This document shows positions 46,001 through 64,000 of a stretch of 64,000 bases of DNA, in pieces; position 1 is the stretch's first letter; the number at the start of each line of letters is the position of its first letter. Under the pieces are notes generated by a model. It saw nothing but the letters and a program-made list of their open reading frames with translations. It did not search any database and had not been told where the DNA came from. The DNA comes from Candidatus Latescibacterota bacterium. Its GTDB lineage: Bacteria > Latescibacterota > UBA2968 > UBA8231. Location: positions 4,640,001 to 4,704,000 of the forward strand of contig OZ241362.1 of NCBI GenBank assembly GCA_965200315.1, in the 5' to 3' direction. Position numbers and translations under genes: made by a program.

Positions 46001-46896
46001 GCAGTAGGATGGTTGTGAGTCTCGACCTTGATCAAGACGTGAGATTGCCGCTGGCGATAGCCATAGCGAAAATCGTCGTCTAGCTGCGGGCCAAAGACCG
46101 ACACGTCAAAGCCCTCAATTACGCCGGCGTTGTCGGAATAGGCCTTAACCGTGCCTTCGGGATGGGACGCGTGCGTGTGGCGAATCATGTCGAAGAGCGA
46201 GCGAGTCTCGCGCTGGCCGTCGATGATCCAATCGGCATTGAAAATTTTGTGGCGGCAGTGCTCGGAGTTGACCACCGCAAACATCATCAACTCCACGTCG
46301 GTCGGGTCGCGCCCAGCAAAGGCGTGCAGCGCGTAGTCGATTTCCTCGTCCGAGAGGGCCAAGCCCATCTCGCGGTTGGCGGCCACGAGCGCACATCGTC
46401 CCTCGGCCCGCACCGGAATATGGACTAGCGGCTTGGGAGCCACGCGGCGAAAGAGGGTTTCTAAGGAGTCGAGCGGGGCCTCAATCATGCGGTCGTAGAG
46501 CAGCGGCAAGACGACTCGACTGAGCTCGCCGAAGCCCTCACTAGGCACTTTATCGGCGGCAAAGGAATACAGAGTACCGCGCTCAACGCGATGCACGAAT
46601 TCGAGGCCGCAGTTTTTGAGAATATCGGTAGCCTTGCTCGACCACGGAGATGTCGTGCCCGGCCGCGGACCAATGGCCACCTCGTTGTGCGCCCGCGCCG
46701 GCAAAGTCGCGTCCACATTGAGGATGTGCATGAGTCGCGCCAGCTCATCGTCCGCTAGGGTCCGCGCACATTGCACGGCATAGAAGTACGTGGCACTCAA
46801 ATCCTCAACTTCGGGTGCGCAATGCTGGCAGCTCACCAGCAGCGACTGGCGGCGAAGGGACGATAGGGCCGGGGGGCCGACAAAGGCGAGTAACAT
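43033..46896 (-). CDS. purL: Phosphoribosylformylglycinamidine synthase (large single-chain type)
   Basis: [46 protein letters not shown]. Confidence 0.98.
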
Positions 46897-47179: not shown

Positions 47180-49162
47180 CTAAAACACAATGCTCGACAC
47201 GGCCTTGGAAATCAGTGCCAGCGCGATGGAAGACATGCCGACCAGCCCCATGCCGCACGAATAGCCGGCCAACAAAATCGGCGCGTACGCCCGCCAGCGC
47301 GCCTCGCCAAAGCGCTTCTGCAAGTGATAGCGGCCCAGCAAGGCACCGATGAAGTTGGGCAGCAGAAAGTGCGGCCACGCGCCCACACCACCGATGAATC
47401 CGTAGAACAGGGCGACCGGCCACCTCAAGAGCGCCAGCGCCCCCAAAATTCCCGCGCTGCCCAGCGCCCCCGTGAGCACGTATTCCCAGCGAATGATGGT
47501 CTTGATCAGCTCGTTGCCCCCCTCGGCGAGGGTGGATTTGGCCCAGAACGCCTGCATAGTGGCGTGGAAGGGCCAAAACTTCTGCACGTAGGGATAGGCC
47601 GACGAGGGAATCGGCCCGAGCTTCCAGATAAAGGACCAGAATATAAACGAGCAGACGAACATGATCAGCAAGGTTACGCCGGCCAGCTTGACGATGCTGC
47701 CGAAGTGGGTGCGGGTCAGTTCTAGTTGCTTGAAGGCCGCGGCTTCGTAGCCCCACTGGAAGAGCGGAATCGGCGCGAACCACACGGCCGCGCCCTGATA
47801 GCCCGACAGGTAAAAGGAGCCTTCGCGCAGATAGGGAAAGGACGCCCCTTGCGGCGAGCCGGTCAGGCCGATCATGCGCGCGCCGATGTACGAGTAAATC
47901 GGCGTCCACACAAAGCCGAAGAACGCGCTAATCCACCAAGGGAATTCCGGCACCAAATACCACACCAAGACCACGAAGCCGAGCGTACTCACCGCCCAGA
48001 TGCCCAAGGCGAGGGGGATGGGGATGTCGCCGCGGCCCTCGGGCAGGCCCTCGTCGCCGCCTTCGCGCTTGACCCCGCGCAAAGTCCACAGGGTCTTGCC
48101 CACCATGGCAAAACCCATCAGAGCCACCATGACTGCGCCGCCAATGGAGAAGCTAAGCCAGAAGTCGAAGGAATTGGCGATCTGCGTGGGGATCGCCGAC
48201 ATGCCCGGCTCCCAGGTGTGCAGTACGTCGTAGGCGTAGAGCACCGGGTTGACGAGGATGTTGACGAGAAAGGCCGCGGCAAAGGAGCCGACCACGATCC
48301 AAAAGGGCAAGACAAAGCCGACCATGACGTGTCCGAGGTCCGTGCCCAGGCCCATGATGCTGGCCGGCAGCATTTCCTTGAGCGAGACGGTCAGATCGAT
48401 AAATGGAATCGGCAAGATCGTCACGGTTTCAGTGAAGAAAATGCCCGAGATCGTGGGGATGACTACGTAGAACAGCCCCCAGATAATGCCGATAAAGGCC
48501 CCGACGCTAAAGACCTCCCACCGCCAGCCTTGGCTCGGTCCCGAGCTCTCGGCGAGGGCGGTCGCGCCGCCGGCCTGCACCGCTGCCAGCGGGTACGGCA
48601 GGCGCTCGATGTCGTTGGTGATGCGGAAGAGCACGTAGCCGAGGGATAGGCTGTTGATCTTCTGCATCACGATGACGGTCAGCAGCAGGGCGATGGGCTT
48701 GAGCCAAGCGGGGTGTAAAAAGGAGCGCCCCTCCAGCCCCGGCGAGCCGCGCGGAGGCACCACCCAATCGGGGATGTGCTGGTGCAAGCCGTCGGCTTGG
48801 GGCGATTGGATCAAGTACTGGTCCCAGATCAGCCCGCCAAAAGGCCCGCCGAACAGCTCGGCGCCGGTGCCCAACTTGCCGCCCATCATGACTAGGCCGC
48901 CAGCCACCCAGTAGAGAATGATCACCTCTTGGGTGCGCAGGCGCGCAAAGGAACGCTTGGCGATTTCGATGAAGAGGATGAGCGTCACCCACTCGGCACC
49001 GCCGGCCATGCTCTGGCCGGTCACCAACCCCAAATAGATGGCCCCGGGCAGCATGATGAAGCCAACGAAGAGCGCGGCCCACAAGGTCTTGAGGTTGAAA
49101 CCCGGTTCAAATTCGAGGTCTGCGGGAATGAGTTCGGGCGTTTTTTTGTCGTCTTTGGCCAT
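47180..49162 (-). CDS. OPT-superfamily-like polytopic membrane transporter
   Basis: 660 aa, roughly 15 hydrophobic segments, ERLPYPLA motif resembling the OPT LxFP segment. Confidence 0.65.
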   Translation of the reverse strand: MAKDDKKTPELIPADLEFEPGFNLKTLWAALFVGFIMLPGAIYLGLVTGQSMAGGAEWVTLILFIEIAKRSFARLRTQEVIILYWVAGGLVMMGGKLGTGAELFGGPFGGLIWDQYLIQSPQADGLHQHIPDWVVPPRGSPGLEGRSFLHPAWLKPIALLLTVIVMQKINSLSLGYVLFRITNDIERLPYPLAAVQAGGATALAESSGPSQGWRWEVFSVGAFIGIIWGLFYVVIPTISGIFFTETVTILPIPFIDLTVSLKEMLPASIMGLGTDLGHVMVGFVLPFWIVVGSFAAAFLVNILVNPVLYAYDVLHTWEPGMSAIPTQIANSFDFWLSFSIGGAVMVALMGFAMVGKTLWTLRGVKREGGDEGLPEGRGDIPIPLALGIWAVSTLGFVVLVWYLVPEFPWWISAFFGFVWTPIYSYIGARMIGLTGSPQGASFPYLREGSFYLSGYQGAAVWFAPIPLFQWGYEAAAFKQLELTRTHFGSIVKLAGVTLLIMFVCSFIFWSFIWKLGPIPSSAYPYVQKFWPFHATMQAFWAKSTLAEGGNELIKTIIRWEYVLTGALGSAGILGALALLRWPVALFYGFIGGVGAWPHFLLPNFIGALLGRYHLQKRFGEARWRAYAPILLAGYSCGMGLVGMSSIALALISKAVSSIVF

Positions 49163-49165
49163 GTG

Positions 49166-51100
49166 CTAGTTTCCGTACAGCGGGTGCCCCTGCCCGGGGA
49201 ACCAAATCATATCGATGCAAAAAGACAGGCCAATCGCGGTGAAATACCCGAGGATGAGGCCGATGAAAAAGGGCTGGGCGCGGTGGTAGAGGCCGATGCC
49301 GCCCGAGCGCATGATGGCCCATTTGGCCAGCCAAGAGACGAAGATCGAAAAGACGATAATGGTCATGGGGTAGGAACAGATGCCGACCGGCATGCCGATC
49401 GGGTGCAGGGGCCACCACGAGAAGCGGTAGCGCATAAAGGTCAGCAACCCCATTGCGCCCGCGCCGCTTAGGAGGTGGCCCAATCGCGTCCAGTCTGGAG
49501 CCTTGAGGTCGATTTTGCGCAGGCTTTCCACGTAGGGCACTTGCGAGCCGGTGCCGAATATCCACCCCCCGTAGTTGTACGCGCCAAAGGAGTAGCCCAT
49601 GTAGAGCGCGAAGGCCATAGAGACGACGAGGGCCACTAGCGCCGAGAAGAGTATGAAAAAGCTCAGCCAGCGGCGGCTTCGACCGGAGCTCAGCCGAGGG
49701 TTGCCGCGAATGTGGCCGGACACCTTGGCGCTGTTGGCCGCGGCGACCATGAAGAAGCCCTTGAGCTCGTGGTGCCAGCCATAGGACAGCCCCATGACGA
49801 TGTTGCTCTGCGCGGTGGCGTGCGGCCCAAGCGCGTAGCCAACGAAGGTTTGGCCAACTAGCGGGGCGCGGCTGAAGAGCAAGCCACCTTCCATGATGAT
49901 GCGCGTAATGCCGACGTAGAGGACCAAGGTGGCCAAGATGAAGAGCGCGACCGTGGGCGGGTTCATGCCGGCGCGCCACATCGAGAAGGCGATGTAGAGC
50001 AGGGCCAACCCGCCGCCAAAGACGATCATCCGGTAGGACATCAGCTCGTCGGTGTCGTCGATGTCCGCATCGTTGCGCATGGCTTTGCGCCAGATCGCGC
50101 CGAGGTGCCCACGCGCCATCCACAGCATCCCGACGACGAGGGCGATCAAGGCACCGAAAGACTGCCAGCCGATGCCGGGATGCCCAAGGGTGTACACGTC
50201 GCGGCCAGCGATCGCGTAGCCAAAGCGGTTGAACAGGCCCTGTTGCAGCATGGTGAGCGCGGTGAAAAACCACATGCTGAACGACACGTCGAGGTTGACA
50301 AAGTACGTGAAGCCGACGATGGCCCAGTTGACGTTGGTGTTGATGGCGGGAAATTCGCGGCCAATGCGGATGGGGTCAGAAAGATCGCGCGGGATGGGCG
50401 GGAAGGCCGGGGTAAAGTACGTGACCACGTTCCACATAACCATGCAGAAGGGCAGGGCAAAGCCGAACCAGAATGCCTTTTGGCGCACAAAGCTGGGCCA
50501 GTTAGAGCCGGGCGGCGGGGCGATGAGCTGTTGGGGCAATTCCATCAGGGCGAAGGGCAGGCGCTCGTATTCGACCCACTGCTTGCGCAGGGCCGCGACC
50601 ATGCACTGACACAAAAAGAAGATGGCCATCACCAAGCTGGTCCACCAAAAAAGCGGCACGATCCAAGCACCCCAAGGGATGGATTCGCCCGCGGGCAGGC
50701 CGTTGTAGAACCACTTGAGGGCAATCGCGTCGTTGGGCACCAGCCATTCCTCGATGTACTGCACCACCTTGCTCTGCCACTGATTTTCGGGCGAGGCAAA
50801 GTACTGGGGAGCGGCGATGACTGCGATCATGTACGTGGAAGTGCCCCAGGTGGGAATTGAGGCCCCCACTAAGGACATGATGAAGATGAGGCCCAGTTCG
50901 CTGGTGCTCAGGCCGCGCACTTTTAGCAGCGACTTGGCCGTGGCGTTGAGAAAGACCAAGCCGGTAAAGAGAAAGACCACGCTCAAGGGCAAATAGCTGA
51001 TCGCCCACTGCGAGGACTTGAGGATGAACATGCTGTACGGGGCCCCAATGTTGATCAAGATCACGAGGCCCAAGCCGATGAGGAAGGCGCGTGCGGTCAT
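49166..51100 (-). CDS. Polytopic membrane protein, DUF6785/DUF6784-type (OPT-related)
   Basis: 644 aa; IPWGAW..P, RKQWVEYERLPFAL, WWPLHPIG, PFFIGLILG. Family name from recall. Confidence 0.65.
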   Translation of the reverse strand: MTARAFLIGLGLVILINIGAPYSMFILKSSQWAISYLPLSVVFLFTGLVFLNATAKSLLKVRGLSTSELGLIFIMSLVGASIPTWGTSTYMIAVIAAPQYFASPENQWQSKVVQYIEEWLVPNDAIALKWFYNGLPAGESIPWGAWIVPLFWWTSLVMAIFFLCQCMVAALRKQWVEYERLPFALMELPQQLIAPPPGSNWPSFVRQKAFWFGFALPFCMVMWNVVTYFTPAFPPIPRDLSDPIRIGREFPAINTNVNWAIVGFTYFVNLDVSFSMWFFTALTMLQQGLFNRFGYAIAGRDVYTLGHPGIGWQSFGALIALVVGMLWMARGHLGAIWRKAMRNDADIDDTDELMSYRMIVFGGGLALLYIAFSMWRAGMNPPTVALFILATLVLYVGITRIIMEGGLLFSRAPLVGQTFVGYALGPHATAQSNIVMGLSYGWHHELKGFFMVAAANSAKVSGHIRGNPRLSSGRSRRWLSFFILFSALVALVVSMAFALYMGYSFGAYNYGGWIFGTGSQVPYVESLRKIDLKAPDWTRLGHLLSGAGAMGLLTFMRYRFSWWPLHPIGMPVGICSYPMTIIVFSIFVSWLAKWAIMRSGGIGLYHRAQPFFIGLILGYFTAIGLSFCIDMIWFPGQGHPLYGN

Positions 51101-51258
51101 GTTGGCTGCCCGGTGCTACAGAGGGCAACGGACGGCACCCGCTTTCGGTACTCTTGGCTGATTCCCGGCGACCGGAGTGGCCACGCGAGGAACCGCTCGC
51201 AAAGCATCTTGAGGATTTGGCTCATCCCCCCTCGATCTTCTTGCGACTCTTCATGGCT

Positions 51259-51639
51259 TCAAACCTCCATGGTGGCCACGTCGTATTGCGAAATGTGGCC
51301 GTCCCGGGTCACGAGGATCAGCCCTTCGGCCCGGGCTTGAGCAATCAGGAACCGATCGAATGGATCCCGGTGGTGCATCGGGAGGTGGCCGGCCTGCTCA
51401 GCGTGATGGAACGTCAGCGGAAGGTGAGTGAAGCCCCTTTCCTCAACCAACACCGACAGATTGTCTGGAGCGACTAAGCGCCCCTTTGCCCGCTTGACCG
51501 CGATTTCCCACCCGGTGATGGCGCTGACGAAGACGTCATTGTGCGGATCGGCGATTGTGGCACGGATATCTTCGGCCAGTTGCTCAACATCGGATAGGCA
51601 CCACAAGAGGGTGTGGGTATCCAACAGTAGCCGCGACAT
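51259..51639 (-). CDS. vapC: PIN-domain toxin
   Basis: LLLDTHTLLW, SAITGWEI, HRDPFDRFLIAQA, TRD. Confidence 0.93.
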   Translation of the reverse strand: MSRLLLDTHTLLWCLSDVEQLAEDIRATIADPHNDVFVSAITGWEIAVKRAKGRLVAPDNLSVLVEERGFTHLPLTFHHAEQAGHLPMHHRDPFDRFLIAQARAEGLILVTRDGHISQYDVATMEV

Positions 51640-51641
51640 TG

Positions 51642-51896
51642 CTAGCGCTTATCTGGAAAAATTTTCGCGTTCTCCACTAGGTCCATGAGCTCTTCATCAG
51701 GATCGTCAAAGTCTGGAGACATCCAAATCTTTCCCTCTAGCCCACCAAGCTGACGTTCCTCTAGGCGATCCCGATACGGTTCCAGCCGCAAATACGGCTC
51801 GCCGGCCTTGGCGATCACAACTTCTTCCCCGGCCCAAGCCAACCTGCCTAGGCGCGAAAGTTGCGATTTGGCCTCGTGCATGTTCACCTTTAGCAT
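51642..51896 (-). CDS. Phd/YefM family antitoxin
   Basis: VNMHEAKSQLSRL, GEEVVIAKAG, SPDFD. Confidence 0.92.
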   Translation of the reverse strand: MLKVNMHEAKSQLSRLGRLAWAGEEVVIAKAGEPYLRLEPYRDRLEERQLGGLEGKIWMSPDFDDPDEELMDLVENAKIFPDKR

Positions 51897-51910
51897 TATA
51901 GTTCCTCCGA

Positions 51911-51955
51911 TAGCTAAGTTAAGCTAAGTCTATTTTTGTGGCGGGGCCGTGTCAA
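51911..51955 (-). promoter_or_regulatory. Sigma70 promoter and probable autorepression operator of the TA pair
   Basis: TTGACA (51955-50)-17 bp-TAGACT (51932-27). Repeated AGCTAAGT boxes at 51912-51929 overlap the -10 and start region. Confidence 0.75.
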
Positions 51956-51993
51956 GGGCGCACGGCAAGCGGCCTAGCGAGCGAACTTTGGTC

Positions 51994-54900
51994 CTACACC
52001 GCCGCCGGCTCAGCCCCGGCAAACGCCTTTTCCACCTCGTCCTGATACCCTTGGCGAATCCCGGGCGACAGAGTGCGCCAGACGAGGAATCGCTTGCGTA
52101 GCACGTTGAGGAACTTGCGATTCATCCGCTGCCAAGAGGCCACGTCGCCGCTGAGGCGCTCGATGTGGGTCTCGATCTTGTAGATGCGGTGCTCGCCGGT
52201 GGGAGTTGCCTGTAGGCGCACCTGCTGGCTGATCCCGAGGTCGTAGGGTGCCAGCCAAGTGCGCATGGCAATGGCGTAGGATGGCTCCGGCCCGTTGGTG
52301 GCGACGGATAGCTCGACGTCGCGGGCGATGAAGTCGCCGATGGAGCCTTCTCCATAGGCGGCAAAGACCGACTTGAGATACACGTACATGCTCGGCACTT
52401 CGGCCCCGCCGACCGTGAAGGGAAAGTCAAAGTGCCAGTGGTCGCCAACGGGCGGGGGGAATTGCCATTGCCGCGTCACGTCTGGGACGGCCATGTTGGC
52501 CGCCATGCGCGCTGGATACAAGGTCGATAAATAGACCGTGCCGATGACTACTACCGTAGCCCACACCGCCGAGAGCGACGAGTAGTTGAGAGTCAGGCCG
52601 GCGAGTAGCCCGTATTGCAGCATGAACAGATGGGCGATCTGGCCCAAGGCATAGCCGACCACCGCACCGAAAGTGGCAAAGACCGTGGATTCGGCCAAAA
52701 ACAGCAGACCGATGTGGCTGGGGGCCAAGCCGACGACGCTGTAGATGCCGATTTCGCGCACGCGCTCGTACACGGCTCCCATCATGGTATTGAGCACGAT
52801 CAAGGCAGCGATGATCACCGGCACCAAAAGCTGGCCGGCTCCGCTTATTTCGGTGGAGCCGATCGAGCTGTAGGCCACGACGCGGTCGCCTTGGCCGACG
52901 AACAAGGTCAGCGCCACCCGCGACATAAAGGACTCCACGCGCTGGACGAATTCCGGGTCGTCCGCGTCTGCGGCGATGGCGATGGAGCGCAGGCGGCCAT
53001 CCATGGCGCGGACGCGCTGGTAGGGTAAGAAGAGGGTGTTGATTACTTCGAGGTGGTTGAAGGTCTCGACCGCGGTGGCGGCCAAGGTGCGCGGGTCTTC
53101 GGTGCTTTCGCGGGTGATGAGGCCGGCGTCTTTGACCGTATCCACCGGTGTCAGGCGCTCGCCATCGAGATCGACGACCTCTTTTAGGGCCGCGCTGTCG
53201 AATAGGCCGATGACTTGGTACTCTTCTCCGTAGAGTGCGATGGAAGCCATGCCCACATCCTCGGCGCCAATGCCGACGAGCGCGGCTAGGCTGTCGGGCA
53301 AAATGACGGCCTGGTCGTCGCCGGTCGCAAAGAAGCGGCCAGCCGAGAGGTGCGCGTCGAGGCCCGTTACTTTGGCTTCAGCCGGCTGCAATCCCACCAA
53401 GCCGTGCGCGAAACTAGCCGCGCCGGTCGCGGTGGCGGCAAAGTCGATGTAGGCCCGTTCGGATTCGACCGGCGACAAGTACCAGGCGCGCGGCACGACC
53501 AAGCCGCGGTCGCCGAATGCGCTCTGCACGTAGTCCAAGATGGAATCCTGCATGCCGCGCCAAGCGCGGTCGCGGATGAGGCCGCCCTCGTATAGGGGCG
53601 AGGTATCGCGCGGCAGGCGATAGAAGTCGAAATTGGACTTGACCGAGGTAAAGGAATTGACGGTAAAGGTCAAAAAGGTCAGGGTCGCGGCTGTCAGCGC
53701 GGTGCGCAGGCGGCGTTTGCTCAAGTTGGAAATGCCCAACAGCACGGCCGCAAAACCTGCGGCAATGCGCCCCACGTCAGTCTCATGTACGCCCGCGGCC
53801 GCGCCCTTGCGCCGCTGCAAAAGCGCCTTGAAGCGAGTGACGACGATAAAGATGACGAGGACGCCTAAGGCGAGGATGACAAACGCGAGGAAGATGATGT
53901 ACGGCGAGCTGCTCAGCTTGAAGGCCGGATGGACGAAACGCAGTATCAGAAACACGAGGACGAAGATGCCGACAAAGCCGGCGATTTGCCGCCGCACGTC
54001 CGGGAAGCCGAAGAAAAACCGCTCGCAGAAGAAGGCAAAGGGCAACAGGAGCGCGAAGTAGAAAATCACCGCCCGGACCGCGTCGTTGGCGGTGGCCTTG
54101 ACTTGCGGGTAGATGCGGGCCTCTAGCCCGAGGGCGCGGCGCACTGCGCGTTGGTAGCCGGTGTAATCGAAGGCCGCGAGTTTGTCGCGGGCCTCAATCA
54201 GGGCCTCCCGCGCTCGATCGTGCATGGCTTGTAGCTGTTCGAGGACGATGCCGTGGCGCACCATTTGTTTGATCCGCGCCTCGTCGATGATCCAGATATC
54301 GCGGGCCGCCTGCAATGCCGGATAGGGGATGAGTCCCTGTTCAACGGGGAAGCCCTCGCCCTGTGCCCGCTCAATGGTCGCCAGATCGACGCGGGCTGGA
54401 TCGAGGTCGGCGAACAGGGTGGAGTCTGCGTTGGTGAGCATGTAGCGCACGCCGGCGAGTGCGCTCTCGCCGCCAAAGGCTCCTTCGCCGGCGAGGATTT
54501 TGACGCGGGTACCCGGCTCGGCAAACACCACGCCGGCCTGCACCACCCGGTCCTGCACTGCGCTCTGGTTTTCGATGTAGCTGAGGGAAAAAGAGCGCGG
54601 CGGCGCGTCGTTGGTGCCGAGGACGTTGACGCGGTCCATGGCCGACAGATAGCGCGGATCGACCACCTCCAAGAAGCTCAGGGCGCGGCAGCGAAACAGG
54701 ACCTGCAACATGCGGTTTTCCCACCAGCCATAGGGCTGGGTGCCCGGATAGGTTTTGTCGCCCTCTTCGCCGAGGTCGGGCGCGGAGACGATGCGCCCGT
54801 ATTCGTCGAGTTCAAAGGCTTGGATCCGGTTGGCAAAGCGGTTGCGCACGATGTCGAACTTGAAGTAGCCGCTCTCGTCTCCGTGCGTGGCCATCAGCGT

Positions 54901-56589: not shown

Positions 56590-56660
56590 TAAACGGGTGC
56601 CGGACAGAAAAAGCGGCAGGCCGCGGCCTGCCGCTAGGCTATGCAGCTTGGCCGACTCGG

Positions 56661-57425
56661 CTAGTTGGCCGCCAACTTGTCGATGTTTTTGAGCTTCTTA
56701 ATGTCGCGCTTGAAGCGGAAGCGGAGGTCAATAGTCTCCAGCGGTTCGTTGCGGAAGTTGTAGCGCAGCCCAAATTCGGGAATCTCGACGGCGATTTCGG
56801 CGACGTCGTCGTGAATCTTGGGGAAGACCACGTAGCCTTCGACCTCTTGCCCTGAGAAGCAAAACTCGTCGTCTGGGTACTTGGCTTGGTTGTAGAGGTC
56901 GCGGCGCTCGTCGAAGCGCATATAGCCCAAACCGTTGAAGGCTAGGGGGAAACGCCGGAAGTACTCCTCTACATCGTAACTGCCCCAAGGATAATAGTGC
57001 CGCCCATTGGCCGACTCCACGTTCACCATCAGCGGATCGAACTTAACTTTGGGATATTCGTAGTTTTTGACCGTGATCTTGAAGATGGACAAGCGCTGTG
57101 GTGCTTGGCCCGTGCGCGGATCGATCCAATTGCCATAGGTGAATGGGTTGGACGGTAGCTCGTCAGTCGGGCCGCTGGCATTGGTAGATTGGGCCGGGTA
57201 CTGGCGATTGATCTCCTCGTCGTTCATGGGCCGCACGGACACTTCGAGGCGGTTCTGCACGAAGGTGACCGTGCCGTCGTCGAGGATTTTCATGCTCGAT
57301 CCTTGAACATCGGTCTGCTGCTGGGTCACCTCAAAGGGCTGAAACTGCCCGGGAACGAGGTAGTGGCCACAGCCCAACAAAAGGGCCGCAGCGACGAGGA
57401 TGGAAATTTTTTTGCAAGCGTACAT
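56661..57425 (-). CDS. Hypothetical lipoprotein
   Basis: Start MYACKK after a GAGGAG RBS; lipobox LLGC; beta-rich body. Confidence 0.75.
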   Translation of the reverse strand: MYACKKISILVAAALLLGCGHYLVPGQFQPFEVTQQQTDVQGSSMKILDDGTVTFVQNRLEVSVRPMNDEEINRQYPAQSTNASGPTDELPSNPFTYGNWIDPRTGQAPQRLSIFKITVKNYEYPKVKFDPLMVNVESANGRHYYPWGSYDVEEYFRRFPLAFNGLGYMRFDERRDLYNQAKYPDDEFCFSGQEVEGYVVFPKIHDDVAEIAVEIPEFGLRYNFRNEPLETIDLRFRFKRDIKKLKNIDKLAAN

Positions 57426-57447
57426 GGAACACTCCTCTCTGACAAGC

Positions 57448-58755
57448 TCATAGCTCGACTGGATTGGCAGCCTGTCTGCGTCGGGAGACAAATTCCCCCA
57501 ATTGCCCTTCCTCCACCACCACGACCGCGGCGTATTTTTCGCGCAATTGCTCAATGTAGCGGTCGAACAGGGGCGCGGCTTGGGCATCGCGCAGATCGCG
57601 TGCGACTTGCGCTTGTAGTTCCCGCCCGAGCGCGCCTGAGCGGGCGTAGCGTTGCGCGTTGGCCTCGTAAAAGGTGCGCACCTCGGCAGGGTCAAGCTGA
57701 ATATGTGCGAAAATTTCTCGCTCCCACAAGGCTTGGATTAGCTTCTGTTGGCGCACTTTTGCGCGGCGCGATTCCAACTCGGCGTCCAGACCGTGCTTGT
57801 GCGCCTCCTGCGGTAGAATCTGGTCGGCGACAAAGGCCCGCGTCACCTTGAATCCGAGGGTGCTGACATCGGTCGGCTGCGACCCGGCGGCTGCCCCAAG
57901 CCGGGCGAGGGCCTGCTGGTAGTCCCCGACGCTCCAGGCGCCCGCAGCACTGCGAACCAACCGCACCTCCGGCCGCGCCGCGCCCGCGGCGACCTGCCGC
58001 AACGCGGCCGTATCTAACTGCACGGTGTGCTGGCTGGTCAACCGCTCTAGATAGGCTAGGTTCGCCTGTTGCTTCTTGTGCCGAGTTAGGGCCGCTTCCA
58101 CGAGCGGGCGGCGGTCTGCCAACGAGACGGTGCGCTCGGCTGCAATGGCTACCACTAAAAATTGACCGTCAGTTTCTACCAATTCAACGGTCCCCACTTC
58201 CTGCAGGAACAGGGCGGCTGTGCGCACGTCGCCCGCGTTGAGCGCGTTGAGCCACCCGCTCTCGCTCCACTCCCCGTCCAAATCCAATCCCTCTTGAGCC
58301 TTTCTAAGTGCCGCCAAGGCTGCGGCCCGCTCGCGCACAGGCAAACGCCGCAAGCGAATTTCGCGGCCCCCGCCCGATTCGGCGAAGAATTCCGCTAGCT
58401 CCGTTTCCGTATAAGTCAACTGCTCGCCCATCTCGCGTGTGAGCAAAGCCTCGACCCGTTCTTTGCGCTCCCAAGCCGCCATCTCATCCGCGACCGCTTC
58501 GTCTAGCCCTTGGGCCTGCGCTTCGAGCAGCAGCAGCTCTTTGTCGATGAGGGCCTGCAATTGGCGACGCCAATCCGCAAGCGGCTGGGCTTGGCTGCCG
58601 GCGGGTAGCTTTTCTAGCGCAGCCGCAAAATCCCGCTCGCTAATCGCGGCCTCGCCCACTCGGGCTAAGATCGCCGACGCGCTTTCGGGCGGCGCGTCGG
58701 CGCAGGCCATAAAGCCCAAGGCTAAGATGACCGTCTGCGGCTTTAGAAGCTCCAT
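57448..58755 (-). CDS. SurA/PrsA-like chaperone lipoprotein with degenerate PPIase region
   Basis: Signal ending FMAC; ILARVGEAAIS, LIDKELLLLEAQAQGLD, EVRTFYEAN, YIEQLREKY. The chaperone-like module occurs twice. Confidence 0.65.
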   Translation of the reverse strand: MELLKPQTVILALGFMACADAPPESASAILARVGEAAISERDFAAALEKLPAGSQAQPLADWRRQLQALIDKELLLLEAQAQGLDEAVADEMAAWERKERVEALLTREMGEQLTYTETELAEFFAESGGGREIRLRRLPVRERAAALAALRKAQEGLDLDGEWSESGWLNALNAGDVRTAALFLQEVGTVELVETDGQFLVVAIAAERTVSLADRRPLVEAALTRHKKQQANLAYLERLTSQHTVQLDTAALRQVAAGAARPEVRLVRSAAGAWSVGDYQQALARLGAAAGSQPTDVSTLGFKVTRAFVADQILPQEAHKHGLDAELESRRAKVRQQKLIQALWEREIFAHIQLDPAEVRTFYEANAQRYARSGALGRELQAQVARDLRDAQAAPLFDRYIEQLREKYAAVVVVEEGQLGEFVSRRRQAANPVEL

Positions 58756-61361
58756 CCCCTTCTTTCGGCTGGCCGACCGCCCAAGCGCTCTTCTTCTAGC
58801 CCTGCATAGAGCTCGATGAAGGCAATGGTGTTGCTCACGTCTTGGTCGGTGAGGGTGGCAAAGTTGATGTCGTTGACCTGAAAGCCAACGTTGGATGTGA
58901 CGCTGTAGCCTTGGTACTGGACCCGATTGGTGTACTGCACGGTGAACACCTTGCCGATGAAGTCGTCGATGTACTCGGGCGGCAATGGGTCGGGGATCGC
59001 CTCGGCATTGCGGAAAATTATGGCCTCCACTCCGACCTCGACGCGGCTTCTCGTCAGCACTGGGAACACGGCCGACAAGGAGAAAATTTCGCTCAACTCG
59101 TTGATCTCAAGCTGGACGGTGCGCGGTTGGGTGCGCTTGCGCCACATGTTTTTCCAGCGCGGGATCAAGGTGATGTTGCGCCCAATGGAAAACGGATAGT
59201 CCGCTTTGTTGATCACTCCGTAGAACGCGCTATCGCGGAGGCGGTCGGCTGTTTCGTCGCGCTGCTTGAAGTGATCGAGGCGGAACTTGTTGACAAAGGT
59301 CAGGTTGCCGCGGGTGTACTTGTAGCCGACGAAGCTCTGATTGACGATGGTGTTGCCGGTGATTAGGGGGTCGTCAAAAGGTTGCAAGCCGCCAATGGAG
59401 CCAGGGCGCTGCACCCATTGCAGCAGGTTGTCGGCGATGTTGTCCTCAACGGACTTGAGCATGTGGAAGATTTCAAACTTGCCCATCCCAGAGATGTCGC
59501 GCACCGCGCTGAGCAATGCGTATATGGCTGTTGACCGCTCTTGGCCGGCGATCAGCCACTCGCGATTGCGGCCTACGGTGAGATTAACCCCGGGGTAAAT
59601 CTCGGCCCCCCCGTATGCGTTCCAGCCGCGATGCCCCTTGCGGTAGGGATAGTCGGCCTCGTCGTCGTTTTCAAAGCGATCCACTACGGTATTGTGGTTC
59701 ATATCGACGCCGAAGAGGAAGTCAGGTGGGTCGATATAGTGGCGCAAGAATGGCTCTTCGTAGTCCGGGGTGAGGTTGGAGTTTTCGTTGAAGTCCGAGA
59801 GCAGGTCGTTGTTTTCGTCGAGGCCGGGGAAGACGGCGTTGTCGCCGCCGCCCGGATCGCCAAAGCGCGGCCAATCCACGAGTTGGTCTTGATCGTCGTT
59901 ATCGTCGATGTACTCGAACCAGTTCTGGCGCTGGTTTTCGTAATCCACGACATCGTTTTGGTCGGTGATGTACCCGCGCGTGGTGTACCCGTAATCCATG
60001 CTGAACACCTCGCCGTAGCCAAAGTAGCGGCCGGTGCGGCGCGTGGCGTTGACGAACCAAGCATCGGCCGTGCGGCTGCTCTTTTTGAGGTTGCTCAGTT
60101 TCTGGATGTTGATGTTGGGATAGCGCTGAAACTGGGTGTTGCGTGCGAATTCGCCGCGCACCTCCAAGCCCCATATATCCTCAATGGTCAAATCGACGCT
60201 GGCGATTTGGTTGGCCGAGGGCAGGCCGTAGTCAAAGCGGACGACGCGCTGGTTGGTGTTGTCGCGCACATTGCCTTCTGAGCGAGTGACCGGCAAGAAG
60301 ATGGGCTGGCCGTTGATATTAGTCTGCAAGTTGGAGGTTATCTCCACTCGGTAGTCGTTGGAGAGCACCATGGCGTAGCTGACCTTTTGTACCACCAACG
60401 GATCGGGCACTCGGTAGCGGAGGAGGATCGGTGCCTCTTCGAGGGCTTCGAGAAAGCCCTCGCGCTGGCGGCCCCCCTCAATAGTAGGATTGACCGAGGT
60501 CTCTTGGCCATCGACGATCATCTGCGCCGAAAAGAACAAAGCGCCGGAGCCGTCGCCGGGCGAGTCGTCAGAGATGCGGATGACGATTTCGGTGACGTTG
60601 CCTGAATTCTGGCTGCTGGTCAGCAAGCCAGCGCGCGAATTTTCCGAGAAATTGCTGCTCGCCGAGCCGAAATTAGTATTGACATACGTGACTCCTAAGC
60701 CCATGAAGTCGCCGACTTGGGCAGTGCCGCGCAGGCCGATGAAGTTGGTGAAGTCCGTGTCTTGCACTCGGTTCCCCCCCTGTGCCAACCGCACCGGCTC
60801 ATTGACGCGCGACAGCAGCACGGTGGCCTCGTATTTGTCGGACGCAAAGTCCCATTGGACGCCGTTGAAGCGCGAGCGACTGAAGGTCAGCGGGGTCAGG
60901 GTCGTGCGGATGTAATCGCCGACGGTCAGAGCAGAGTAGTACTGGCCCTTGGAGTCGGCGGCCACCAGTAGGTTTTGGAACCAAGAGCCAAAGCGGCTAT
61001 CTTTGAAGACCGAGCTGCCAAAGGCCAGTGGCTGCTGTTGACGCCACTCGTAAATGCGCCAGCCCCGGGTGATCCAGTTGCCGAAGATGTCGTACTGGCC
61101 CGTGCCTTCTAACTGCGTGTTGACATAGCGCTGAAACGGTTCCTTGGCGTAGTTGGTGTACTTGTAGCCTCCCCAGTGGTAGATGTAGTAGAGGTCTTGG
61201 GGCACGTACCACTTGCGCAGGGTCGGGACCAATGGGTCGAAGCCATCGATCCTAACTTGCGAGGTGGCACCGCGCTCGCGCCCCGGGGTTGCCGCTCGGA
61301 CGCTGGACGCTGCAACAACTAGGACCAGCAGGGCAACCCCCCAGAACATAACTTTGTGCAT
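58743..61361 (-). CDS. Large exported protein, putative outer-membrane beta-barrel with Asp-rich Ca-binding-like loops
   Basis: Signal peptide; aromatic, amphipathic beta-like segments; DNDDQD, DENNDLLSD, DMNHNTVVD; terminal WSF. Confidence 0.55.
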   Translation of the reverse strand: MHKVMFWGVALLVLVVAASSVRAATPGRERGATSQVRIDGFDPLVPTLRKWYVPQDLYYIYHWGGYKYTNYAKEPFQRYVNTQLEGTGQYDIFGNWITRGWRIYEWRQQQPLAFGSSVFKDSRFGSWFQNLLVAADSKGQYYSALTVGDYIRTTLTPLTFSRSRFNGVQWDFASDKYEATVLLSRVNEPVRLAQGGNRVQDTDFTNFIGLRGTAQVGDFMGLGVTYVNTNFGSASSNFSENSRAGLLTSSQNSGNVTEIVIRISDDSPGDGSGALFFSAQMIVDGQETSVNPTIEGGRQREGFLEALEEAPILLRYRVPDPLVVQKVSYAMVLSNDYRVEITSNLQTNINGQPIFLPVTRSEGNVRDNTNQRVVRFDYGLPSANQIASVDLTIEDIWGLEVRGEFARNTQFQRYPNINIQKLSNLKKSSRTADAWFVNATRRTGRYFGYGEVFSMDYGYTTRGYITDQNDVVDYENQRQNWFEYIDDNDDQDQLVDWPRFGDPGGGDNAVFPGLDENNDLLSDFNENSNLTPDYEEPFLRHYIDPPDFLFGVDMNHNTVVDRFENDDEADYPYRKGHRGWNAYGGAEIYPGVNLTVGRNREWLIAGQERSTAIYALLSAVRDISGMGKFEIFHMLKSVEDNIADNLLQWVQRPGSIGGLQPFDDPLITGNTIVNQSFVGYKYTRGNLTFVNKFRLDHFKQRDETADRLRDSAFYGVINKADYPFSIGRNITLIPRWKNMWRKRTQPRTVQLEINELSEIFSLSAVFPVLTRSRVEVGVEAIIFRNAEAIPDPLPPEYIDDFIGKVFTVQYTNRVQYQGYSVTSNVGFQVNDINFATLTDQDVSNTIAFIELYAGLEEERLGGRPAERRGWSF

Positions 61362-61451
61362 AACAACCCTCCCTTAGGCGTTCACTTGTGCTTGGCGCGG
61401 CTAGCCGCGCAGTGAAAAGATCGGCGGCCGAGATGGCCCGGCCCATGTAGG

Positions 61452-63233
61452 TCAGTACACTACGGCAATACTCCGCATCTGTGTGGCGATGCCAGCGTCG
61501 GTAGCGGCCTTGAGGCGGAGCAAGTACATGCCCGGCGGCACCACGCCGCCGGCATCGCGGCCATCCCAACGAACTTGGTTGGGGCCGGAGCGGTCGCGGG
61601 CTTGGTAGAGGCGATGCACTGGCCGGCCGCTCAAGTCGTACACGACGACCTCGACTTCGACCTCGTGGGTCGCCTTGAGCAGAATGTAGTCGAGGGTGAT
61701 ACGGTCGTTGATGCCGTCGCCATTGGGCGTGATTACCGCGGATGAGAACACAACGCCGGTAAAAAGCTCGTCGTCGATGCGGGCACTGACGACGAGCGTG
61801 TTGTCGGTGGCTTCTTCGGCCGCATCGCCGAAAGCGACTCGCTGCGGAAACGCGTCGGATTGGCTGTCGGCGACCTCGCCGCGAAATTCCGTGCCGGAGA
61901 CGGTGACCAAACTGGCAAAGCGCACGGCGACTTCTTGGCCGCTACGGGTGATGCGTTGGTCGGGAAAGCTCACCTGCAAGCGGCCCAAATCGGACGCCGT
62001 GGTAAAGTTGTCAACCTCCACACCATCGACGCGCACGCCCGTGGCGCGGGCCGCAAACGGAGTGTGGATGATCACGGTGTCAAAGCCTCGGTTGCCGCTC
62101 GAGACGACCGAGCGCAGGTGATAGGTAAATTCGTTCTCGCGCCCGAGGGTGGCCGTGGCCGGACTGATTTCGGCGATGACCGAGTCGGCGAGGGACGGCA
62201 CCGTGTAGTTGAAGACCACTGAGTCGATGATGGCTTTGTGCTGCAAGCTACTCGACAGCAGCTTGAATTGGAACTGGAGGTAGCGCCGGTTGTCCGGCGA
62301 ATTGATCGTCGATTCGAGTAGCTCGGCGTAGGGCGGGGACCACGCACTCCAATCGCGGTCGTTTTCGAGGACGACGCCGGCGTATGATGGATCGAGTGTG
62401 CGGTCGAAATCCGCTAGTGCCACTTCCTCCACTTCCCCGGGAATGCCCGTCTGGCGGAAGTAGAGCGAGTCCGTAGCGACAAAACCGGTCTTGGTGCTGA
62501 ACTGGGCTTGAGCGATACTGTCGATGCGGCTGTACACATCGACCGGACCGAAGTTGGCCGCTTCACCTAGGTCAATCACCTTGGATATGTACTGGGCAAA
62601 GGGCGTGACGCCAACGCCAAAAACTTCAAGGTCGCCCATCTGAAAGCCTCGTTCGCCCGTACTGCGCAGCCTAAAAGAGCGCACCTTAGTCGGCGGAAAG
62701 CTCAGATCCAGCTCGGGCTGGCCGTGCGAGCGGTCTTGTGCTATGAGCGCGTACACGGGATTGCCGCCAACGAAGTTGAGCGGGTCGCCATCGTTGGCGT
62801 AGAACTCGTAGCCACGCAGCGAGCGCTCGTCGTCGTTGAGGACGCCGCGGCGAAAATAGAGGCGATGGAGGACAAAGATGGCACCCATATCGACTTCGAG
62901 TTCGGCACCATTGGGGTTGGTGTACACGCGCCAACCCGTGGTGTGGGAGCCGTCAATGAGTTCGTTGAGTATCTGGTTGGAGCGCGCCGCAGCCGTGCTC
63001 ACCGAGGTGGTTGCGCTGCCATCGAGTTCCTTGATGCGCGGCAGGATATTTTCCTCGGGGTCGGCCTCCAGCGGCGATAGGCCCCTATCTTCGGTGACTT
63101 CAAGTGCCTTGAATATGAGCGAGTTGCCTTCCCACTCCAGTCCATCGCCGCCTATTTTGAGCCGTTCCGCGGCCGCGGCCGGAGTGCTGTATCCCATCGC
63201 TAGGAGAGCTAATGCGAGTGCGGCACGGGTCAT
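61452..63233 (-). CDS. Exported protein with discoidin-like domain and C-terminal FlgD-Ig-like domain
   Basis: Start MTRAAL with signal peptide; LIDG...VDMG; ITPNGDGIND, YDLSGRPV, WDGRD, PPGMY, terminal AVVY. Confidence 0.8.
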   Translation of the reverse strand: MTRAALALALLAMGYSTPAAAAERLKIGGDGLEWEGNSLIFKALEVTEDRGLSPLEADPEENILPRIKELDGSATTSVSTAAARSNQILNELIDGSHTTGWRVYTNPNGAELEVDMGAIFVLHRLYFRRGVLNDDERSLRGYEFYANDGDPLNFVGGNPVYALIAQDRSHGQPELDLSFPPTKVRSFRLRSTGERGFQMGDLEVFGVGVTPFAQYISKVIDLGEAANFGPVDVYSRIDSIAQAQFSTKTGFVATDSLYFRQTGIPGEVEEVALADFDRTLDPSYAGVVLENDRDWSAWSPPYAELLESTINSPDNRRYLQFQFKLLSSSLQHKAIIDSVVFNYTVPSLADSVIAEISPATATLGRENEFTYHLRSVVSSGNRGFDTVIIHTPFAARATGVRVDGVEVDNFTTASDLGRLQVSFPDQRITRSGQEVAVRFASLVTVSGTEFRGEVADSQSDAFPQRVAFGDAAEEATDNTLVVSARIDDELFTGVVFSSAVITPNGDGINDRITLDYILLKATHEVEVEVVVYDLSGRPVHRLYQARDRSGPNQVRWDGRDAGGVVPPGMYLLRLKAATDAGIATQMRSIAVVY

Positions 63234-63274
63234 CGCTGTTCCTTTTTGCTGTAAGGTGGCAAAAGTAGGCTCCT

Positions 63275-64000
63275 TCAGTAGGCTACCGGCACGATTCGCT
63301 GCACCGTCTCGGTCTGGGAGTCGCCGGCAATCTCGATTTGCACTAGATAGGTCCCTGGACTCACGAGCGCACCGGTGCCGTCGCGGCCATCCCAAGTGAA
63401 GCGGTAGCGCCGAGCCAGCCCATCGCCGCTGTCGAGGGCGCGCACGTTGCGGCCGGCCAAATCGTAGATGTAGACCCGGATTGGCCGCGGCGTCACCAGC
63501 TTGAGTGCGTCGAATTCAATGGTCAACTCGTCGCCGACCCCATCGCCATTGGGCGTCAGCACGAGCGTCGAGAGGGCGACGTTAGCTAGCAGCAGGTCGT
63601 TGACCGGCAGTTGCACCGAGACGGATTCGCTCGGCACATTGGCTTTGACGTCGCCTTGGTCAACGAGTTGGCGCACGTCGGTGCCGAGGTTGCTGTTGCC
63701 GAGGAAGAGGTCAAAGCGCGTCTGATTTTGGTAAATGGTACTGCTGAACGAGAGTTCGATTATCTCCGAGCGGCGGACTGTGGCTGGTAGATCGACGACA
63801 AAGCCCTCGGCGACCGGAGTAATTGCGAACTCCTCCACCGGCTCATCCCCCAACTTCAGGCTGGTGAAATTGACGGGCACGGACGCGGCCATGGTCAGGC
63901 GGTCAAAGCCCTGCGAGCGCCCGCCAAAGATCGGCAGGACAAAGTATGTAAAGTCCTTTTTGACGCCCGGTTCGACTTGGCTGGGGAAGACCTCGGCGCG
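63275..64000 (-). CDS. Paralogous exported protein with C-terminal FlgD-Ig-like domain, 5'-truncated by window edge
   Basis: Frame open to 64000 (RAEVFPSQVEPGVKKDFTYFV..GFD); LTPNGDGVGD, YDLAGRNV, WDGRD, SPGTY, terminal PVAY. Confidence 0.8.
   Translation of the reverse strand, partial: RAEVFPSQVEPGVKKDFTYFVLPIFGGRSQGFDRLTMAASVPVNFTSLKLGDEPVEEFAITPVAEGFVVDLPATVRRSEIIELSFSSTIYQNQTRFDLFLGNSNLGTDVRQLVDQGDVKANVPSESVSVQLPVNDLLLANVALSTLVLTPNGDGVGDELTIEFDALKLVTPRPIRVYIYDLAGRNVRALDSGDGLARRYRFTWDGRDGTGALVSPGTYLVQIEIAGDSQTETVQRIVPVAY

Follow-up and report, generated by a model that had tools for sequence, protein, structure and literature searches.

We analysed a co-oriented run of genes in a 64,000-nt stretch of the genome of a Candidatus Latescibacterota bacterium (contig OZ241362.1, positions 4,640,001 to 4,704,000; hereafter the window). 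The genes, labelled A to K (Table 1), begin at window position 47180 and extend past the window edge at 64000 to about 71121. They belong to two separable modules, both heavily duplicated in the genome: a surface module comprising the exported S-family proteins G, H, I and K, the CBM9-like protein J, the putative outer-membrane barrel F and the lipoproteins E and D, and an inner-membrane module comprising C, B and A. Our best explanation, held with a confidence slightly short of even, is that the region is a composite, multi-copy nutrient-capture-and-import locus resembling the polysaccharide utilization loci (PULs) of Bacteroidota. It is founded on protein folds and families, copy numbers, gene order, the phyletic coupling and decoupling of the modules and core genes of a type IX secretion system (T9SS); docking of the S proteins on F, conduction of a substrate by F, the kind of substrate and a cooperation of both modules are what it would imply.

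Two heavily duplicated modules

The contig is a single piece of 5.36 Mb in a genome of 5.4 Mb. Open reading frames (ORFs) were called by greedily choosing the longest ones, which gave 5075 ORFs (the window copy of D was missed by this procedure), and these were searched with iterated hidden Markov models. The search unveiled 101 S, 42 F, 37 B, 31 J, 31 E, 14 D, 9 C and 5 A proteins, where the number for C comprises seven full-length members and two ordinary short FtsX permeases and that for E includes general SurA-type genes. By tblastn, paralogs covering more than half of the query were obtained for F (40), B (35), J (21), E (16), D (13), C (7) and A (5), and 51–98 for each of the tailed proteins G, H, I and K. 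For DUF6785, one of the two families matched by B, 39 matches were counted in the genome, 35 of them essentially full-length. The sequence identity between paralogs varies between 24 and 43%.

The S proteins cluster into six main subgroups, and two locus types built from them recur in the genome, namely J-D-S4-S4-S2-F-E in about 5 loci and J-S6-S3-S5-F(F)-E in about 14 loci. As both patterns are fixed, whole multi-subunit sets must have been duplicated en bloc. The window locus reads S2-J-S6-S2-S6-F-E-D and is a hybrid. An S gene lies within 3 genes of F in 35 of 42 cases, and 16 of the 37 B genes were found within 10 genes of F, compared to 4.5 expected by chance. The 27 accessory genes scanned in paralogous loci encode mostly TPR and FG-GAP/ASPIC proteins and one sulfatase. 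S genes also occur on their own: at contig positions 4940613–4953884 a tandem array of six S genes with alternating S2 and S4 was observed, with no F, J, D or E nearby.

In order to follow the arrangement in other genomes, GTDB species genomes were scanned with the F profile, resulting in 543 relatives, the best 80 of which were used for the locus counts. Nearly all of these 80 loci belong to metagenome-assembled genomes labelled Candidatus Latescibacterota, some to genomes labelled Gemmatimonadetes and two to genomes labelled Handelsmanbacteria. Of the best 80 loci, 76 contain S, which directly adjoins F in 66 of them; 55 contain J, 46 contain E and 39 contain D, and a B gene lies within 10 kb of F in 27 loci; C (12 loci) and A (5 loci) were encountered in orthologous loci only. 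Twelve orthologous loci from other assemblies, whose F proteins are 74–96% identical to that of the window, keep the gene order as far as their partly truncated contigs reach, and both modules stay contiguous in them. The whole cluster S-J-S-S-S-F-E-D-C-B-A is found in L041 and L045, and likewise in L039, in which E was not called. Evidently, the gene arrangement is not a product of chance.

The phyletic distribution was determined for 61 Latescibacterota genomes, our own included. B is present in 47 and C in 48 of them, and both occur in all 19 genomes of the families f2 and f3 and in none of the 13 genomes of family f9. F (37 genomes) and J (35 genomes) show the opposite pattern, being absent from all 19 f2 and f3 genomes and present in all 13 f9 genomes; one genome contains F with no J match. 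Each of the 19 f2 and f3 genomes holds at least 20 B matches, and B and C are adjacent in at least 9 other genomes. F and J thus co-occur, B and C co-occur, and the two pairs are separable, i.e. they are two modules.

Surface module

Each of the S proteins G, H, I and K combines a CBM32/discoidin-like domain and additional beta-sandwich domains with a signal peptide and with a C-terminal domain resembling type B domains of the T9SS. Their common tail matches PF13860 (FlgD_ig) and PF13585 (CHU_C). CHU_C (cut-off 27 bits) scored 29.7–30.5 bits for H, 32.5 for K, 27.5 for I and 26.4 for G, and FlgD_ig (cut-off 27 bits) was exceeded by G (28.8 bits) and H (31.7–34.1 bits), with I and K remaining below. 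F5_F8_type_C yielded 21.1 bits for G and 33.8 bits for H. The type B model TIGR04131 (cut-off 35 bits) gave 20.8 bits for G and 12.8 bits for H, and the type A model is matched as well, more weakly. Typical of type B domains is a TPNGDGxND-like motif. A comparison of the S-family profile with the PDB returned CBM32 modules of hyaluronidases, sialidases and NagJ, and also FlgD. The tail alone is matched by 114 ORFs in the genome. Moreover, the di-haem cytochrome c peroxidase (CCP_MauG) encoded upstream of K ends in a FlgD_ig/Por_Secre_tail domain, so that T9SS-type tails are not confined to the S family.

The search for the T9SS core covered PorU, PorV and SprA. Away from the locus the genome encodes PorU (NF033707, 615.1 bits, cut-off 420) and SprA (TIGR04189, 622 bits combined, cut-off 200), and PorU is adjoined by a PorV-like gene that stays below its cut-off (149.8 bits, cut-off 250). 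The tailed paralogs are most probably T9SS cargo. Since the tails are of T9SS type and PorU and SprA are encoded elsewhere, the locus need not export its own paralogs.

According to two reports, a type B cargo gene in Bacteroidota usually has the gene of a cognate PorP/SprF-like shuttle barrel directly behind it (PMC12618676). This barrel is required in release from the translocon as well as in anchoring (PMC12618676, PMC9143113), and type B cargo anchors to PorP-like barrels (PMC9143113). The F gene occupies the very same position directly downstream of the S cargo genes. No match to PorP_SprF (PF11751) was obtained in our genome, and the control genomes gave none either, so that this result does not speak for its absence.

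F carries a signal peptide and a C-terminal Phe. At thresholds of E ≤ 0.01 for Pfam and E ≤ 0.1 for NCBIfam it matches no family, and the Pfam scan gave no Plug, TonB-dependent-receptor or TonB-box family match. A structure model computed from a 24-sequence alignment (predicted local distance difference test score, pLDDT, 74.8; predicted template-modelling score, pTM, 0.72) suggests a large beta-barrel of roughly two dozen or more strands with an inserted beta-sandwich at about residues 240–370 and an Asp-rich loop at about residues 465–575. The fold search with this model retrieved generic large barrels only, led by SlpA (7zgx, Z 15.0) and SprA (6h3i, Z 13.5) and followed by porins, LptD and ushers; the matches to TonB-dependent transporters (Z about 10–11.6) are likewise generic. 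Consequently, no family can be assigned to F from its fold. DUF6029, an Atlas lead for F with a score of 0.89, was rejected, as no Pfam match supports it. The F genes of the genome outnumber Plug-domain TonB receptors by 42 to 14, and all 14 Plug matches are located at places other than F genes. Every listed F relative with a source name goes by "hypothetical protein", and precomputed Pfam domains are absent from the listed relatives. The F profile furthermore found 1226 cluster representatives (E ≤ 0.001) among 1.84 billion proteins; these representatives carry no taxonomy.

J shows a weak CBM9 match and ends in the invariant motif TAVExxSWGxIKxxF. Of the 5075 ORFs, 35 bear the pattern [ST]W[GA]x[IVLM]Kxx[FYLWMV] within their final 30 residues, and no ORF bears it elsewhere. 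The carriers are 25 of the 31 members of the J family and 10 further small proteins (116–372 aa). The strictly C-terminal SWGxIKxxF tag may be a sorting or docking signal. For D, an alignment of 9 paralogs has a mean column identity of 46%; D has no Pfam or NCBIfam match, and its profile gave nothing meaningful against the PDB. The window copy of E matches SurA_N_3 (19.4 bits) and SurA_N_2 (17.9 bits), both below the cut-off, and TIGR02925 (26 bits). Parvulin domains (Rotamase/Rotamase_2) were detected in 17 of 18 aligned members of the E family; the window copy has none, and its orthologues (418–449 aa) are likewise devoid of the parvulin peptidyl-prolyl isomerase (PPIase) domain.

Some F genes are associated with genes of an ExbB/ExbD-type motor. 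A paralogous locus of our genome (L118, contig positions 3929001–3949000) reads S-F-F-F-TPR(1080 aa)-DUF5683-162aa-DUF4159-D-307aa-ExbB. In two genomes of the distant family f9 (L033, L034) the order S-F-F-TPR(1100–1106 aa) precedes a series of ORFs that agree in size and succession between the two, which the Pfam scan of L033 identified as DUF5683, a 148-aa protein, ExbB, ExbD, ExbD and DUF4159; L034 was matched by its ORF sizes. A genome of the window's own family contains F-D-DUF4159-TPR(1085 aa)-F-F-S-S (L037). The TPR protein of about 1100 aa in these linked loci has a YfiO/BamD-like part. The linkage of TPR, DUF5683, DUF4159 and ExbB/ExbD genes to F is hence conserved across distant families of the phylum.

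Inner-membrane module

B matches DUF6785 (PF20581, 359.2 bits, cut-off 25) and DUF6784 (PF20580, 86.6 bits, cut-off 26.4). Its AlphaFold model, computed from 28 sequences (pLDDT 88.1, pTM 0.90), superposes over nearly the whole length on barley Yellow Stripe 1 (7wsr/7wst; Foldseek TM-score 0.64–0.69, E 7e-9, probability 1.00), and the next Foldseek matches have TM-scores of 0.16 or less. B is accordingly modelled as a transporter with the oligopeptide transporter (OPT) fold. At the sequence level neither A nor B matches PF03169 (OPT) even at E ≤ 1, and PDB sequence searches with B alone and with the B profile gave nothing; the nearest named clusters in the Atlas, "peptide transporter" and OPT (scores 0.76–0.79), are a lead only. 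A has no Pfam or NCBIfam match. A profile-profile comparison by hhalign relates the A family to the B family (probability 95.1, E 3.3e-8, 288 columns), and this link comes from that comparison alone, a direct BLASTP of A versus B not being significant. An armadillo-repeat assignment of A in the PDB search was discarded, as the matches were spurious and confined to a 23-residue stretch. One of the 5 A paralogs in the genome carries C-terminal PDZ domains.

The giant protein C matches FtsX (44.5 bits, cut-off 25.5) and Peptidase_M28 (PF04389, 34 bits, cut-off 21.3). Its paralogs also match PA, and MacB_PCD (30.4 bits, cut-off 27) was found in the paralog L023 only. In the alignment with the aminopeptidase 2ek8 the EE of the GAEENG stretch, i.e. 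the Glu-Glu pair that is catalytic in M28 peptidases, aligns with HF. HF or HH stands at this position in 7 of 7 full-length C paralogs, and Tyr replaces the first His in 5 of 7. By these substitutions the M28-like domain is probably a binding module and not an enzyme. C itself has no ABC_tran match, and all 67 ABC_tran matches of the genome are 14 kb or more away from each of the 7 full-length C genes; the two ordinary short FtsX permeases caught by the C search, by contrast, each have one within about 1.3 kb.

The pairing of C and B is underlined by a fusion of both, a single 2119-aa ORF at contig positions 1296121–1302480 with a C-type N-terminal part and a B-type DUF6785 permease as C-terminal part. 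In five other genomes, C matches fall on open frames of 1900–2179 aa, which may represent similar fusions. In two F-less f2 genomes (G007, G018; three loci, L030–L032) tandem B-B pairs stand beside other outer-membrane-type genes, a PorV-like gene (324–326 aa) in two loci and CarboxypepD_reg in one, and beside large exported proteins of 780–1785 aa with no Pfam family.

Organization and transcription of the locus

All features of Table 1 lie on the minus strand; everything from A up to the 3' part of H, the PIN/antitoxin pair included, falls within positions 47180–64000 of the window. The intergenic gaps are 3 nt (A|B), 158 nt (B|PIN), 2 nt (PIN|antitoxin), 97 nt (antitoxin|C), 71 nt (C|D), 22 nt (D|E), −13 nt (E|F, an overlap), 90 nt (F|G) and 41 nt (G|H). 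The start of D was reassigned to MYACKK, which exposes its lipobox, and that of G to MTRAAL.

Table 1. Features of the locus (window coordinates; positions above 64000 lie beyond the window).
Feature	Coordinates	Strand	Description
A	47180..49162	-	660-aa polytopic membrane protein, distant OPT-like relative of B
B	49166..51100	-	644-aa DUF6785+DUF6784 permease, OPT/Yellow-Stripe-like fold (model)
PIN-domain (VapC-like) toxin	51259..51639	-	PF01850, 61.9 bits (cut-off 23.6)
Antitoxin-like gene	51642..51896	-	84 aa, sub-cut-off Phd/YefM and DUF2281 matches
C	51994..56589	-	1531-aa PA/M28-like domain fused to C-terminal MacB/FtsX-type membrane domain
Terminator-like hairpin	56612..56635	-	in the D|C gap
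D	56661..57425	-	~254-aa lipoprotein, no recognised family; lipobox LLLGC
E	57448..58755	-	SurA-like lipoprotein without PPIase domain; lipobox GFMAC
F	58743..61361	-	872-aa exported protein, modelled large outer-membrane beta-barrel
G	61452..63233	-	exported discoidin/CBM32-like protein with T9SS-type C-terminal domain; S family, subgroup S6
H	63275..64000, on to 65647 beyond the window	-	S-family paralog of 790 aa (subgroup S2); window holds the C-terminal part
I	65701..67500 (beyond the window)	-	599 aa, tailed S-family paralog
J	67611..68522 (beyond the window)	-	303 aa, CBM9-like
K	68755..71121 (beyond the window)	-	788 aa, tailed S-family paralog

A first-pass annotation, made from the window sequence by a model, had described this run as co-oriented and closely packed minus-strand genes with a toxin-antitoxin pair in between, which is correct, the run being longer than the window allowed to see. 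Its assignments to single genes also held: exported paralogs with a shared FlgD tail, F as an outer-membrane protein (by our barrel model), D and E as lipoproteins, C as a fusion of M28-like and FtsX parts (both matched in Pfam), and an OPT-like pair, for which the B model and the A–B profile comparison speak. Its proposed check of the gene neighbourhood unveiled synteny that is conserved in the orthologous loci.

The gap between D and C contains a strong terminator-like hairpin, made up of a 10-bp stem (8 G-C pairs) around a loop of 4 and accompanied by a T-run, which likely marks the boundary between the surface and the inner-membrane module. The toxin-antitoxin pair is of the VapBC type; the 84-aa gene preceding the PIN gene reaches 17.4 bits for PhdYeFM, below the cut-off. 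As C and B adjoin or overlap in 4 orthologous loci (L041, L044, L045 and L046), leaving no room for such a pair, we regard the toxin-antitoxin pair as a secondary insertion. In 3 other orthologous loci a different gene of 331–339 aa is located between C and B. Two promoter-like sites were found at 51955–51895, directly upstream of the antitoxin; the number of such sites in the region, 5, is not above that of shuffled sequences (4.0 ± 2.0).

The window stretch is contained in sponge-metagenome runs; two further runs with only relatives of it (95–99% identical fragments) were left out. Contigs of two metatranscriptome libraries from one study cover 30 and 29 of 30 bins and span all of C as well as the D-E-F and F-G-H junctions, which is consistent with expression of the cluster; contigs from RNA libraries may include DNA and cannot establish a single transcript or operon. 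At the hairpin one set of these contigs breaks (56628/56637) and another contig bridges the site, which is a weak hint at most.

The run is flanked by genes of other kinds. Downstream of A, a full-length purL gene (43033–46896; FGAR amidotransferase, 1287 aa) is unrelated and marks the end of the cluster. Upstream of K, at 71291–73814 on the plus strand, a divergent gene of the FGE-sulfatase family and the CCP_MauG gene mentioned above are encoded.

Comparison with known systems

The arrangement of S and F resembles that of T9SS type B cargo and PorP/SprF, as in SprB-SprF of Flavobacterium johnsoniae and PG1035-PorP of Porphyromonas gingivalis. Here as there, the exported cargo has a C-terminal domain matching CHU_C/type B, in our case at or near the CHU_C cut-off. 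Also shared are a barrel gene directly downstream, many cognate sets per genome and a T9SS core encoded elsewhere (PMC12618676, PMC9143113). The differences begin with the barrel. F has 872 aa, roughly two dozen or more strands and no PF11751 match. PorP/SprF barrels, in comparison, have about 300–400 aa. In addition, two or three cargo paralogs accompany each barrel, J, D and a SurA-like gene are part of the set, the host belongs to Latescibacterota and not to Bacteroidota, and the tails are mostly below the TIGR04131 cut-off.

With Bacteroidota PULs of the SusC/SusD type the region shares dozens of paralogous loci per genome, an inner-membrane transporter that is often nearby and, in each locus, a large outer-membrane barrel, CBM-like surface proteins and a lipoprotein. 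F differs from SusC in having no Plug/TonB-dependent-receptor match, and a SusD-like protein is missing. Furthermore, the surface proteins are T9SS cargo by their tails instead of lipoproteins, and the scan of 27 accessory genes turned up no glycoside hydrolases.

B resembles the OPT/Yellow Stripe-like transporter HvYS1 of barley in its modelled fold over nearly the whole length. It differs by a sequence identity of 12%, the missing PF03169 match and its membership in the DUF6785/DUF6784 families, and also by its about 37 copies per genome and its coupling, once by fusion, to the giant C. C, for its part, is related to the type VII ABC transporters of the MacB/LolCE/FtsX kind through its C-terminal part, which matches FtsX (in one paralog MacB_PCD). 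In contrast to these transporters, a nucleotide-binding domain is neither fused nor adjacent (0 of 7 paralogs), the partner is an OPT-fold permease, and the N-terminal ~1000 aa form a PA/M28-like domain in which the catalytic Glu-Glu is replaced.

Function of the locus

The capture-and-import reading can be outlined as follows. The genome's single T9SS would export the S proteins, and the cognate barrel F, whose gene follows directly downstream, would then keep them attached to the cell surface, by analogy to type B cargo and PorP/SprF. J and the lipoprotein D may serve as accessory subunits of this surface set, and E as its dedicated SurA-type periplasmic chaperone. Material captured by S and J would pass the outer membrane through F. 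At the inner membrane B, as a secondary transporter, could move small substrates such as peptides, glycopeptides or chelates, with A as a divergent paralog working together with B and C in import, and with C contributing an M28/PA-like domain that probably binds without being catalytic and is anchored in the membrane by a MacB/FtsX-type scaffold. A bolder version of this outline, which we think rather unlikely to hold in full, takes F as a new class of giant barrels that are both shuttle or anchor for type-B-like T9SS cargo and uptake channel. Together with a trio of CBM-like cargo proteins, the tagged J, a lipoprotein and a SurA-type chaperone of their own, they would make up some 30–40 substrate-specific capture machines per cell, each coupled to OPT-fold permeases partnered by a pseudo-peptidase on an ATPase-less MacB/FtsX scaffold, and would form a Latescibacterota counterpart of SusCD built on the T9SS and not on lipoprotein export.

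Several results weigh against an import function of the whole region. Nineteen genomes have B and C with neither F nor J, 13 have F and J with neither B nor C, and as F and B occur apart, their cooperation cannot be obligatory. In our own genome 21 of the 37 B genes have no F gene in their vicinity, and in the window locus itself the terminator-like hairpin splits the two modules. A classical PUL would carry enzymes, and the scan of 27 accessory genes brought up neither a glycoside hydrolase nor a lyase nor an active peptidase. Furthermore, the model of F has low-confidence ends, its fold matches are generic, and the Pfam scan gave no sequence match of F to PorP/SprF (PF11751); an opening of F to solutes is a supposition. 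With regard to the tails, only one reaches the TIGR04131 cut-off out of 60 matches listed for the genome at E ≤ 0.01, and the tails also resemble type A/FlgD domains, so that the type B logic is an analogy. Finally, the link of some F loci to ExbB/ExbD and a giant TPR protein could mean an energised process in place of a diffusion-type uptake.

Much of this evidence also fits a function in display and anchoring only, the main rival reading, which we place on the unlikely side. F would then be a shuttle or anchor barrel through which nothing is imported, the about 30 S/F sets would be a diversified adhesin or coat, e.g. for attachment to the sponge matrix or for evasion of phage or host recognition, and C-B-A would be independent. 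The placement of F directly after the S genes corresponds to the cargo/shuttle arrangement described in PMC12618676, its best fold match is the S-layer-anchoring barrel SlpA, and the massive paralogy with low sequence identity is what diversifying surface proteins would show. The occurrence of the stretch in sponge-metagenome runs, the lack of enzymes in the scanned genes, the deviating phyletic profiles of F/J and B/C and the hairpin between D and C agree with this as well. It does not account for the enrichment of B near F (16 observed versus 4.5 expected; within 10 kb of F in 27 of the 80 loci), for the retention of both modules in the orthologous loci, or for the CBM32/CBM9-like domains and the sulfatase or solute-binding genes of some loci, which fit nutrient capture; moreover, a barrel of this strand number far exceeds what an anchor needs.

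An energised device is, in our opinion, improbable. It would consist of F barrels driven by the ExbB/ExbD-type motor together with the giant TPR protein, DUF5683 and DUF4159, acting either in a plug-less, TonB-like uptake or as a translocator of surface proteins or lipoproteins for J and D, and the window locus would be a satellite that borrows the motor. The linkage in L118, L033, L034 and L037, conserved across distant families, speaks for such a device, and the C-terminal tag common to the J family and 10 other small proteins could be its recognition signal. On the other hand, motor genes accompany a minority of the F loci and are missing in the window locus, F matches neither a Plug nor a TonB-box family, the stretches scanned revealed no TonB-like gene beside ExbB/ExbD, and ExbB/ExbD clusters are common and may be coincidental neighbours. 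Owing to these paralogous loci the "TonB-independent" capture of the first-pass annotation is not established. The same annotation favoured one dedicated machine, for either export and display of the tailed proteins or capture and import. Its capture-and-import alternative agrees with our best reading, but its notion of one machine does not stand against the separability of F/J and B/C and the hairpin. A single trans-envelope machine reaching from A to the tailed paralogs, which a missing ABC ATPase would power for their export or display, is indeed very improbable, although the genes are co-oriented and tightly packed, their whole order is kept in orthologous loci and the components cover every envelope compartment. 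F/J and B/C are found without each other in 32 of 61 genomes, the modelled fold of B is that of a secondary importer, and core genes of the T9SS are available for the tailed proteins; the statement that the set does not match this system is contradicted by the T9SS-type tails and by PorU, the PorV-like protein and SprA in the genome. The ATPase was suspected beyond the window edge, but none is encoded by the 7 ORFs scanned in the following 12.5 kb (to 76454), nor within 14 kb of the 7 full-length C paralogs, unlike in the case of the two short FtsX permeases.

Novelty and significance

The principles involved, i.e. the pairing of T9SS cargo and shuttle, multi-copy capture loci and OPT transport, are known; undescribed are the barrel family of F, the fixed set of S, J, D and E, the tag at the C-terminus, the fold assignment of DUF6785 and the C-B pairing. 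In our literature search no paper naming DUF6785 or DUF6784 was found, nothing joining Latescibacterota with type IX secretion, nothing on the subject among the papers listed by a wider search, and no description of the F family, the S/J/D/E set, the C-terminal tag, the DUF6785 fold or the C-B pairing. A paper on Latescibacterota of Amazon-reef sponges (PMC12993501) contains no mention of a secretion system, discoidin, oligopeptide, outer membrane, paralog or sulfatase.

A sizeable share of the 5.4 Mb genome goes into two unannotated families whose loci recur with a stereotyped make-up; the genes number 42 for F, 101 for S, 31 for J and 37 for B. To our knowledge, Latescibacterota (WS3) are uncultured, and their mode of feeding has been inferred from genomes only. 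DUF6785 and DUF6784 gain a modelled fold together with a testable role, an ATPase-less MacB/FtsX scaffold joined to a pseudo-peptidase appears as partner of OPT-fold transporters, and the SWGxIKxxF tag is a possible new sorting or docking signal. If the loci are capture-and-import units, they would show polymer capture in a phylum of the FCB group outside Bacteroidota and would extend the cargo-shuttle principle of the T9SS to a new family of barrels.

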